64,000 nucleotides of DNA, taken from contig CP120464.1 in NCBI GenBank assembly GCA_034226945.1, positions 62,001-126,000 on the forward strand, in the 5' to 3' direction. Within the stretch, counting starts at the first letter, position 1; each line of letters begins with the position of its first letter. The position numbers and the translations under genes were made by a program. Shown here piece after piece: positions 31,857 to 32,529 of this stretch. The stretch is from Picochlorum sp. SENEW3 (Eukaryota). The notes under the pieces are model-generated. The model worked only from the letters and a program-made list of their open reading frames with translations. It ran no database searches and was not told where the DNA came from.

Positions 31857-32529
31857 TTAATTTTGGACAGAACGGAGCTGAGACATGAATTGGTCAAAAT
31901 CAATCTTACCAGTGCCAGATGGGTCAACCTTCTGCATCGCTGCCTCCACATTCGATGGAGTCATCATCTTCTGTAGATCCTCCTTGTCAATCGTCTTTTG
32001 TCCGACTTGGTTGTTCGCAGACGTGGGAGATTGAGGGGCAGCCTGCTTCTGCGCCTCCAGGTGCTGGTCCCATACTGTGGTGCTGTCGCCAGCAGCTGGT
32101 TTGTCATAGTATGACGATCCCATCTTTTTCATGTTTGCATTGCGCCCCGGATCAAAGGTGCTGCTCCAAACATTGTTTCGTGGACCTGCACATGTCACGT
32201 GAGAGGAATGGCGTCAGTCCGACATCGCGACCAATCGCGTCTCTTTGCCCACAACCGAAATTATATATGGTACTGTTAGTACAATGAACTATCCCAAACA
32301 GCAAAATATGTTGATCATGTCGGGGACCTCCGCGACAGGCAACGATCTACATTTCCGAAACCAAATCCAGACAATGTATTACGTACTTGCTGCTTGCGAG
32401 TCATCTGTTTTGTTTCCTGCGATATGAAAAAATAGGATGACGATGAATAGGTGATATTGAGCGAGTCTGGGGATACGAGGCTGACGTACCAGTTGACATG
32501 CGACGGAGTTTCTCCACGAAAGAACTCAT
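31857..32529 (-). CDS. Dormancy-associated/auxin-repressed (DRM1/ARP)-like motif fused to a C-terminal EF-hand
   Basis: Exons 32529-32490, 32416-32387, 32185-31857 give MSSFVEKLRRMSTG...SPRNNVWSSTFDPGRNANMKKMGSSYYDKPAAGDSTTVWD...VDPSGTGKIDFDQF. Confidence 0.75.

Follow-up and report, generated by a model that had tools for sequence, protein, structure and literature searches.

In the green alga Picochlorum sp. SENEW3, a small gene on contig CP120464.1 encodes the conserved core of the land-plant DRM1/ARP family (Auxin_repressed, PF05564) and, further along the same protein, an EF-hand region. The gene lies on the minus strand at 31857-32529 of the 64,000-nucleotide (nt) stretch analyzed here (contig positions 62,001 to 126,000), which is called the window and in which all coordinates are given. 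This is almost certainly a real and conserved DRM-EF fusion, and it is widespread in chlorophytes, not peculiar to the window gene. In land plants, DRM1/ARP genes are widely used to mark bud dormancy, darkness, and sugar starvation; the biochemical function of the family is unknown, and the fusion provides a testable calcium (Ca2+) lead to it.

Both modules are recognized by profile searches. The product of exon 3 alone (P0001) matches PF05564 at 37.4 bits (E 4.3e-9; cut-off 25) over profile positions 67-107 of 117, so the family likeness proposed in a preliminary description of this DNA is a real PF05564 match. P0003, a 132-amino-acid (aa) “hypothetical protein” modeled by NCBI in Picochlorum sp. 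BPE23, scores 39.4 bits against the same cut-off. It is the same three-exon product as the window protein (96% identical, 2 residue differences), which agrees with the chlorophyte host that had been supposed and points to a Picochlorum-like trebouxiophyte. A hidden Markov model (HMM) that we built from 25 named angiosperm DRM1/ARP proteins also matched P0003 (36.4 bits, E 3.9e-12), aligning HMM positions 61-111 to residues 16-67, and an auxin-repressed protein from Ricinus matches the window directly (tblastn, 42% over 38 aa, E 2e-7). The DRM1/ARP Domain II core (PRNNVWSSTFDPGRNANMKKMGSSYYDKP...TVWD) occupies 32061..32183 on the minus strand and corresponds to residues 4-44 of P0001. Residues 82-108 of P0001 match PF00036 (EF-hand_1) at 27.0 bits (E 2.7e-6; cut-off 25.4), and they are encoded at 31869..31949 on the same strand. 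The DRM motif and the EF-hand share one uninterrupted exon and are therefore in the same reading frame.

The coding sequence was read directly from the DNA as three exons with 396 coding nt (132 codons), and tblastn found one copy of the gene within the window. Exon 1 (32490..32529, minus strand) begins with the ATG at 32529..32527 and has 40 nt, that is, 13 codons and 1 base, encoding MSSFVEKLRRMST- and followed by the donor GTACGT; residues 1-14 of P0003 aligned by tblastn with 100% identity at 32529..32488. Exon 2 (32387..32416) is only 30 nt long, with acceptor CAG and donor GTACGT, and its residues are also present in P0003. It is flanked by intron 1 (32417..32489, 73 nt) and intron 2 (32186..32386, 201 nt), both GT..AG on the minus strand. 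Exon 3 with the stop codon (31857..32185; acceptor CAG; TAA at 31859..31857) is a single open frame that encodes the EF-hand pair as well as the DRM core. The exact coding span, the three exons with a 30-nt middle exon, and the presence of KLRRMST, SPRNNVWSSTFDPGRNANMKKMGSSYYDKPAAGDSTTVWD, IDKEDL, and DPSGTGKIDFDQF in the translation had all been given correctly in the preliminary description.

Four public sequencing runs (X1, X2, X3, and X7) were aligned to 31700-32700. X7 is an oligo-dT metatranscriptome that is RNA on record (study P3), and X3 comes from another study (P2), its RNA status being a guess. The other two runs, X1 and X2, have the introns covered and resemble DNA, so neither provides RNA evidence. 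Both splice joints are present in a 754-nt contig from X7 and a 1075-nt contig from X3, so the two junctions are seen in contigs of two studies. One joint skips 201 nt at 32183/32385 (cut +2) and the other skips 73 nt at 32415/32489 (cut +1); both read CT..AC on the plus strand and correspond to introns 2 and 1, respectively. Contig pieces from X3 and X7 cover 32385..32415 in exon 2, and the RNA contigs span exon 3 without any joint. The EF-hand is in frame with the DRM block, as had been proposed. The alignment of the X3 contig stops at 31791 in a loose stretch of 13 T (plus strand), the sign of polyadenylation of a minus-strand transcript, and gives a 3' untranslated region of 66 nt (31791..31856).

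The X3 and X7 contigs extend past 32700 into the gene upstream, which leaves the 5' end of the DRM-EF transcript undefined. This neighbor (32615..34801, minus strand) is a 728-aa frame with four RRM_1 domains (186.7 bits), and its stop codon lies 85 nt ahead of the DRM-EF gene ATG. Because RNA contigs span both genes, their transcripts overlap or abut.

The same fusion was found repeatedly in other chlorophytes, as the preliminary description had suggested should be looked for. A HMMER pass over 1.84 billion representatives with P0003 as query returned 102 proteins at E<=1e-3, many of them 100-240 aa long and spanning query residues ~20-129. Matches that include the DRM region were scanned against Pfam together with close relatives (n=63; long EF-only proteins and short fragments were excluded). 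PF05564 at 25 bits or more and an EF-hand family above its cut-off were both present in 25 of these 63 relatives, and 21 of the 25 had EF-hand_7 at 30 bits or more, i.e., the full pair. In a profile search restricted to the 8000 candidates sharing most words, precomputed annotation carried both families in 15 of 29 hits among the matches listed. A representative relative, P0031, is collinear with the window from the DRM core to the C-terminus (tblastn, 35.8% over 106 aa, E 8e-15).

Named members of the fusion family are all Chlorophyta. They include Picochlorum sp. BPE23, Chlorella variabilis (XP_005851408, whose model ends inside the second EF-hand), Auxenochlorella, three Trebouxia assemblies (132 aa, two canonical loops), and Ostreobium quekettii (170 aa, UniRef name “EF-hand domain-containing protein”). 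A Tara surface-ocean gene belongs to a cluster that has 34 members on 163 contigs. Cluster look-ups gave no named member beyond Chlorophyta or land plants, which is no proof that none exists. In other chlorophytes, the DRM core occurs without the EF pair, as in Micromonas pusilla, Tetraselmis sp. GSL018, and Pyramimonas (two tandem cores). All 120 of the land-plant DRM1/ARP proteins listed (the best 120 of 442) have PF05564 only, without an EF-hand. We found no publication on the DRM-EF-hand architecture or on chlorophyte DRM1/ARP in the open-access literature that was searched. The architecture is visible in precomputed Pfam annotation and in a UniRef name, so it is better called undescribed than unseen.

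Other arrangements and annotation problems were seen among the relatives. P0028, P0066, and P0072 have two tandem DRM cores without an EF-hand, an undescribed architecture, and one of them is from Pyramimonas (taxid 36882). P0020 (376 aa) has a DRM core with four EF-hands, P0027 (304 aa) has two DRM stretches with an EF pair, and P0026 (907 aa) has a DRM core and EF-hand followed by DUF4485, which may be a merged gene model. The 132-aa DRM-core and EF-pair protein P0046 from Trebouxia sp. C0006 (DBB16858.1) carries the third-party annotation name “Calcium-dependent protein kinase 15”; it has no kinase domain in Pfam, so the name is probably a mis-transfer. P0286, labeled Pelagococcus subviridis in EukProt, is nearly identical to P0288 from Micromonas pusilla CCMP1545 and is probably Micromonas contamination of the transcriptome. 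Several open reading frame calls from metagenomes (P0012, P0013, P0005, P0053, P0065, and others) run into introns at conserved sites, including just past residue 12 of the second EF loop or past FDKNS of the first. These positions suggest that relatives carry introns inside the EF region that have no counterpart in the window gene.

The preliminary description had seen a lone C-terminal EF-hand. Alignment and structure prediction indicate a pair instead, with a decayed first EF-hand (EF1) ahead of a more regular second one (EF2). The window type, ..TVWDQHLEAQKQ-AAPQSPTSANNQVGQKT-IDKEDLQKMM-PSNVEAAMQKV-DPSGTGKIDFDQ-FMSQLRS, lines up collinearly with P0031 and similar canonical relatives (alignments A2 and A3), in which the columns follow in order as EF1 entering helix, loop DKNSDGFITADE, and exiting helix, then EF2 entering helix, loop DRNGDGKIDYQE, and exiting helix. 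By alignment and by the AlphaFold2 (AF2) model, IDKEDLQKMM falls on the EF1 exiting helix, and the helix beginning ..VWDQHLEAQKQ is the EF1 entering helix. EF1 (31965..32075, minus strand) thus comprises the entering helix VWDQHLEAQKQA and the exiting helix KEDLQKM, with a long ligand-free loop AAPQSPTSANNQVGQKT and the short strand TID between them. At the end of the DRM core, the Trp of TVWD, which is nearly invariant, stands where the first EF helix begins.

The AF2 model, made from 56 aligned sequences, has helices at 61-72, 91-97, 100-110, and 120-131 and strands at 88-90 and 117-119. The topology predicted is that of an EF-hand pair with its loops joined by a short sheet; the last two helices and the second strand make up EF2. 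Block means of the predicted local distance difference test (pLDDT) are ~80-87 for the helices and 46-71 for the N-terminal half, and the loop at 77-84 is poorly defined (pLDDT <50). The Trebouxia protein has the same EF pair in its AF2 model. At least 90% of the 56 sequences retain the Gly at position 6 of the EF2 loop (G116), and the hydrophobic helix patterns D..L.KM...V..A..K and F...LR are kept across the clade of the window protein. It is probable that the EF-pair fold has been retained in the window protein. A homodimer of single EF-hands was also considered as a candidate and dropped, since the alignment and model place a complete, if decayed, pair in one chain.

Calcium ligation is another matter. 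An EF-loop pattern after PROSITE PS00018 was applied to the 56 aligned members: 29 have at least two matching loops, 12 have a single one, and the remaining 15, among them the window type, lack any. Its EF1 has zero ligands. Its EF2 loop DPSGTGKIDFDQ (31890..31925, minus strand) fails the pattern solely at position 12, where the codon CAA (31892..31890) encodes Gln, as the preliminary description had noticed; no variant of this codon was found in the four runs. Replacement of Glu by Gln at loop position 12 strongly lowers affinity in calmodulin mutagenesis. In the nearest relatives, EF2 position 12 is Q, E, E, Q, A, R, or K. A maximum-likelihood tree (55 rows, 107 columns, unrooted) places the degenerate forms in one half and the window type in a 12-row clade (98/97 support), of which 10 members have no pattern-matching loop. 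The drift of position 12 to A, R, and K and the 10 of 12 members without a pattern loop argue that Ca2+ ligation is not under selection in this clade; judged from these sequences, the fold appears to be constrained and ligation does not. It is doubtful that the window protein binds Ca2+ at physiological levels. Relatives with two canonical loops, by the same pattern, likely do bind Ca2+. Coupling of DRM1/ARP to Ca2+, as first proposed, is therefore plausible for the family, but for the window protein it is weak, given the ligand-free EF1, Gln12, and the variability of position 12.

With moderate confidence, we regard the window gene as a chlorophyte-branch DRM1/ARP gene with an EF pair, belonging to a family of Ca2+-switched adaptors in which the Picochlorum clade has weak or no Ca2+ affinity. 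Its layout is a short basic LRRMS block, a disordered linker, the DRM Domain II core, and a directly joined EF-hand pair. Canonical family members would act as small Ca2+-switched adaptors: Ca2+ on the EF pair would alter presentation of the adjacent disordered DRM motif, which could itself be a short linear motif for a partner. In the clade formed by Picochlorum and its nearest relatives, EF1 has decayed to a longer, ligand-free loop and EF2 has Gln in place of Glu at the bidentate position 12, and the four-helix EF fold would most likely be kept as a structural or binding module that is largely Ca2+-independent. The gene model, its spliced transcript, the two domain matches, the conserved fusion, and the loop residues are observed; the Ca2+ switch in the family, the loss of affinity in the window protein, and the binding of a partner are steps that we infer.

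Several results weigh against this reading. The EF-hand_1 score of the window protein is narrowly above the cut-off, and the pair model EF-hand_7 reaches 18.2 bits, under its cut-off of 30. Mean pLDDT of the AF2 model is only 69. Foldseek against the PDB gave 0 matches at E<=1e-3 (best E 0.24), and the best VIA-align (wide) result, Z 5.1, covers residues 80-132 only and is not significant. The Foldseek and VIA-align lists contain mainly EF-hand chains but are too weak to prove the fold; the best ESM Atlas score was 0.84, under the 0.9 level, and all ESM Atlas clusters were EF-hand clusters, which makes this no more than a lead. Docking of the DRM motif on the EF domain was not shown by the AF2 models, in which pLDDT of the motif is only 53-79 (53-66 in the Trebouxia model). 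Complex prediction between the EF domain (58-132) and the DRM segment (22-57) of P0003 gave a score of 0.00, with the alignment unused and partner pLDDT <50, and speaks neither for nor against docking. The central branch of the unrooted tree is weak (63/99). Finally, Glu12 is kept in the close relatives P0004 and P0005, and the window EF2 loop retains Asp1, Ser3, Thr5, Gly6, and Asp9; with these residues, the protein may have some binding of Ca2+ or Mg2+.

The last point leads to the most serious alternative, that the window protein is itself a working Ca2+ sensor whose EF2 binds despite Gln12, perhaps with a lower affinity suited to larger transients. Besides the ligand positions just listed, Ile8 is retained in the loop, EF-hand_1 is above its cut-off, P0004 (loop DPSGTGKVDLDE, ending ...DLDE) and P0005 pass the loop pattern with Glu12, and most of the family has two canonical loops. 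However, an EF1 without ligands leaves no cooperative pair, Gln at the bidentate position is expected to cut affinity strongly, and position 12 drifts in a clade where pattern loops are mostly gone. We consider this alternative unlikely.

A second alternative is that the C-terminal region is what remains of an EF pair, decaying and without function, and that the DRM core alone matters in this lineage. Loss of the EF1 loop ligands and variability of the EF2 ligands fit this view, and so does the existence of Micromonas, Tetraselmis, and Pyramimonas (tandem motifs) proteins that have the DRM motif without an EF domain. Conservation of the helices and of loop Gly6, the hydrophobic helix pattern kept across the clade, the block-mean pLDDT of ~80 in the helices, and only 2 amino-acid differences in 132 residues from Picochlorum sp. 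BPE23 argue against it and make it quite improbable. That the fusion is an artefact, with the EF-hand belonging to another gene or frame or the DRM likeness being a chance match in low-complexity sequence, is scarcely credible and is refuted as far as sequences allow: a prokaryote-style call of the locus (P0002) misses exons 1 and 2 and the RNA contigs run on into the RRM gene with no defined 5' end, but the two modules share a single exon and reading frame with joint-free RNA contigs, two independent profiles match (PF05564 and the land-plant HMM), and dozens of relatives have the same arrangement.

The adaptor reading also includes the N-terminal basic block LRRMS (residues 8-12; 32494..32508, minus strand), which resembles the land-plant Domain I block LRK(I/L)(S/T). 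Ahead of the DRM core, the pattern L[RK][RK][LMIV][ST] is present in 54 of 117 land-plant sequences (e.g., LRKIS at about position 23) and in seven of 103 algal-side sequences, at positions 7-9. The algal blocks are LRRMS in Picochlorum, LRKLS in Chlorella, LKRLS in Auxenochlorella, and those of two further lineages. Background occurrence is 2 per 26,120 and 8 per 127,996 residues (~6-8 per 100,000). These counts should be read knowing that the pattern was picked after the data had been seen and that many algal-side rows are open reading frame calls without true N-termini. Land-plant Domain I as such was not detected: when the land-plant HMM was run with filters off, its positions 1-50 aligned to none of 16 algal proteins, and algal PF05564 alignments in the Pfam scan begin at profile position 31 or later. 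The likeness of KLRRMST to the land-plant LxKLRK block, claimed in the preliminary description, is thus favored by the short-motif count and finds no support from Pfam or the land-plant HMM. The block could be a site for basophilic kinases (Arg-Arg-x-Ser).

HMM alignment sets the residues that follow TVYDW in land-plant proteins (..lysgetrsk) against the first turns of EF1 helices in the algal ones, where the counterparts are TVWDEILKAET in P0128 and TWDMiLRSEETRRK in P0040. This alignment is consistent with truncation of land-plant DRM1/ARP by loss of the EF pair; gain of the pair in chlorophytes would be equally allowed, and a tree that is unrooted, with 107 columns and a weak central branch, cannot tell EF gain from loss. 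More speculatively, the green-lineage ancestor might have had a Ca2+ sensor composed of a DRM core and an EF pair, land-plant DRM1/ARP proteins being truncated descendants with the post-TVYDW tail as the stump of the EF1 helix. The DRM core would then work with an EF domain that in land plants is supplied in trans by calmodulin or calmodulin-like proteins. We give this proposal rather little credence, but if true, it would be the first biochemical handle on a dormancy marker.

Conserved fusion of the DRM core to a Ca2+-sensor domain across green algae suggests, as a “Rosetta stone” hint, that the motif works with an EF-hand partner. The fusion also extends the PF05564 family beyond land plants. 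A natural series, from proteins with two canonical EF loops to proteins with none, lends itself to studying the role that the domain has once Ca2+ ligation has been lost. Public databases already contain some DRM-EF members, named either “hypothetical” or “EF-hand domain-containing” protein.

Some features of the window and of the search results lie outside these subjects. Two open frames of more than 200 aa (30344..31009 and 31036..31674, minus strand) are located directly downstream of the DRM-EF gene and share its strand; no Pfam family matched either of them at E<=1e-3, and they may be exons of a single gene. The G+C content of the window is ~45-55%, and it is higher at 24001..30000 (0.53-0.55) than in the rest (0.45-0.49). 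P0228 and P0235 are partial PF05564 proteins labeled Klebsiella pneumoniae; they come from contigs 382 and 235 bases long and are 72-74% identical to plant ARP; they are most likely plant DNA contaminating bacterial assemblies.

Among EF-hand proteins, the pairs of S100/calbindin D9k and of the calmodulin lobes resemble the C-terminal half predicted for the window protein, with four helices and short strands linking the loops. Calmodulin lobes, S100A5, and the troponin C N-domain were among the top, non-significant rows of the Foldseek search; neither structure nor sequence gave a significant match to these proteins. S100 proteins have a non-canonical, longer first loop followed by a more canonical second loop, as does the window protein. 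Neither dimerization nor S100-type backbone Ca2+ ligation by EF1 is indicated for the window protein, and we treat the S100 resemblance as an analogy, not as membership.

The Trebouxia proteins (P0046, P0117, and P0118) and Ostreobium quekettii P0123 have the same order of modules as the window protein and are collinear with it from the DRM core to the C-terminus. They also share the junction, in which the Trp of TVW(D/E) starts the EF1 helix. They differ in having two pattern-passing EF loops and EF-hand_7 scores of 42-48 bits, whereas the window protein has the decayed EF1 and Gln12 in EF2 and lies in the opposite half of the family tree. Many canonical forms have an N-terminal ..SPSF(N/D)D(F/L)S.G..(D/E)AE.. 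where the window protein has LRRMS.

Land-plant DRM1 is described as plant-specific, intrinsically disordered, and 11-14 kDa in size, with two conserved domains, in a protein set that reaches Physcomitrella; Domain I is conserved at the N-terminus of Clade 1 and Clade 2 proteins (PMC3596386). Cotton GhARP is reported to interact with 1-aminocyclopropane-1-carboxylate (ACC) oxidases (PMC12008774), and the words “calcium” and “calmodulin” have zero occurrences in the main text of that article. For Ancylonema, a streptophyte alga, higher levels of transcripts with a PF05564 domain are reported in darkness (PMC12501423). Expression that rises in dormancy, darkness, or sugar starvation and falls with auxin characterizes the family; for the window gene, the data show the presence of spliced, polyadenylated RNA. 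The window protein shares with land-plant DRM1/ARP (dormancy-associated or auxin-repressed 12.5 kDa proteins), such as Ricinus communis P0175, the Domain II core NVW.S.F.PG.N....K..G...(F/Y)DKP......TV(Y/W)D; the short basic block L(R/K)(R/K)x(S/T) upstream of it may be a further likeness. Both are small (132 aa compared to 112-125 aa), and the N-terminal half of the window protein is predicted to be disordered, like the land-plant proteins. The Pro/Thr-rich spacer of the land-plant proteins is absent from the algal protein. The land-plant proteins end ~11 residues past TVYDW, whereas the algal protein continues into the EF-hand region, and, in contrast to the wholly disordered land-plant DRM1/ARP, its residues ~58-132 are predicted to form a folded EF-hand pair.

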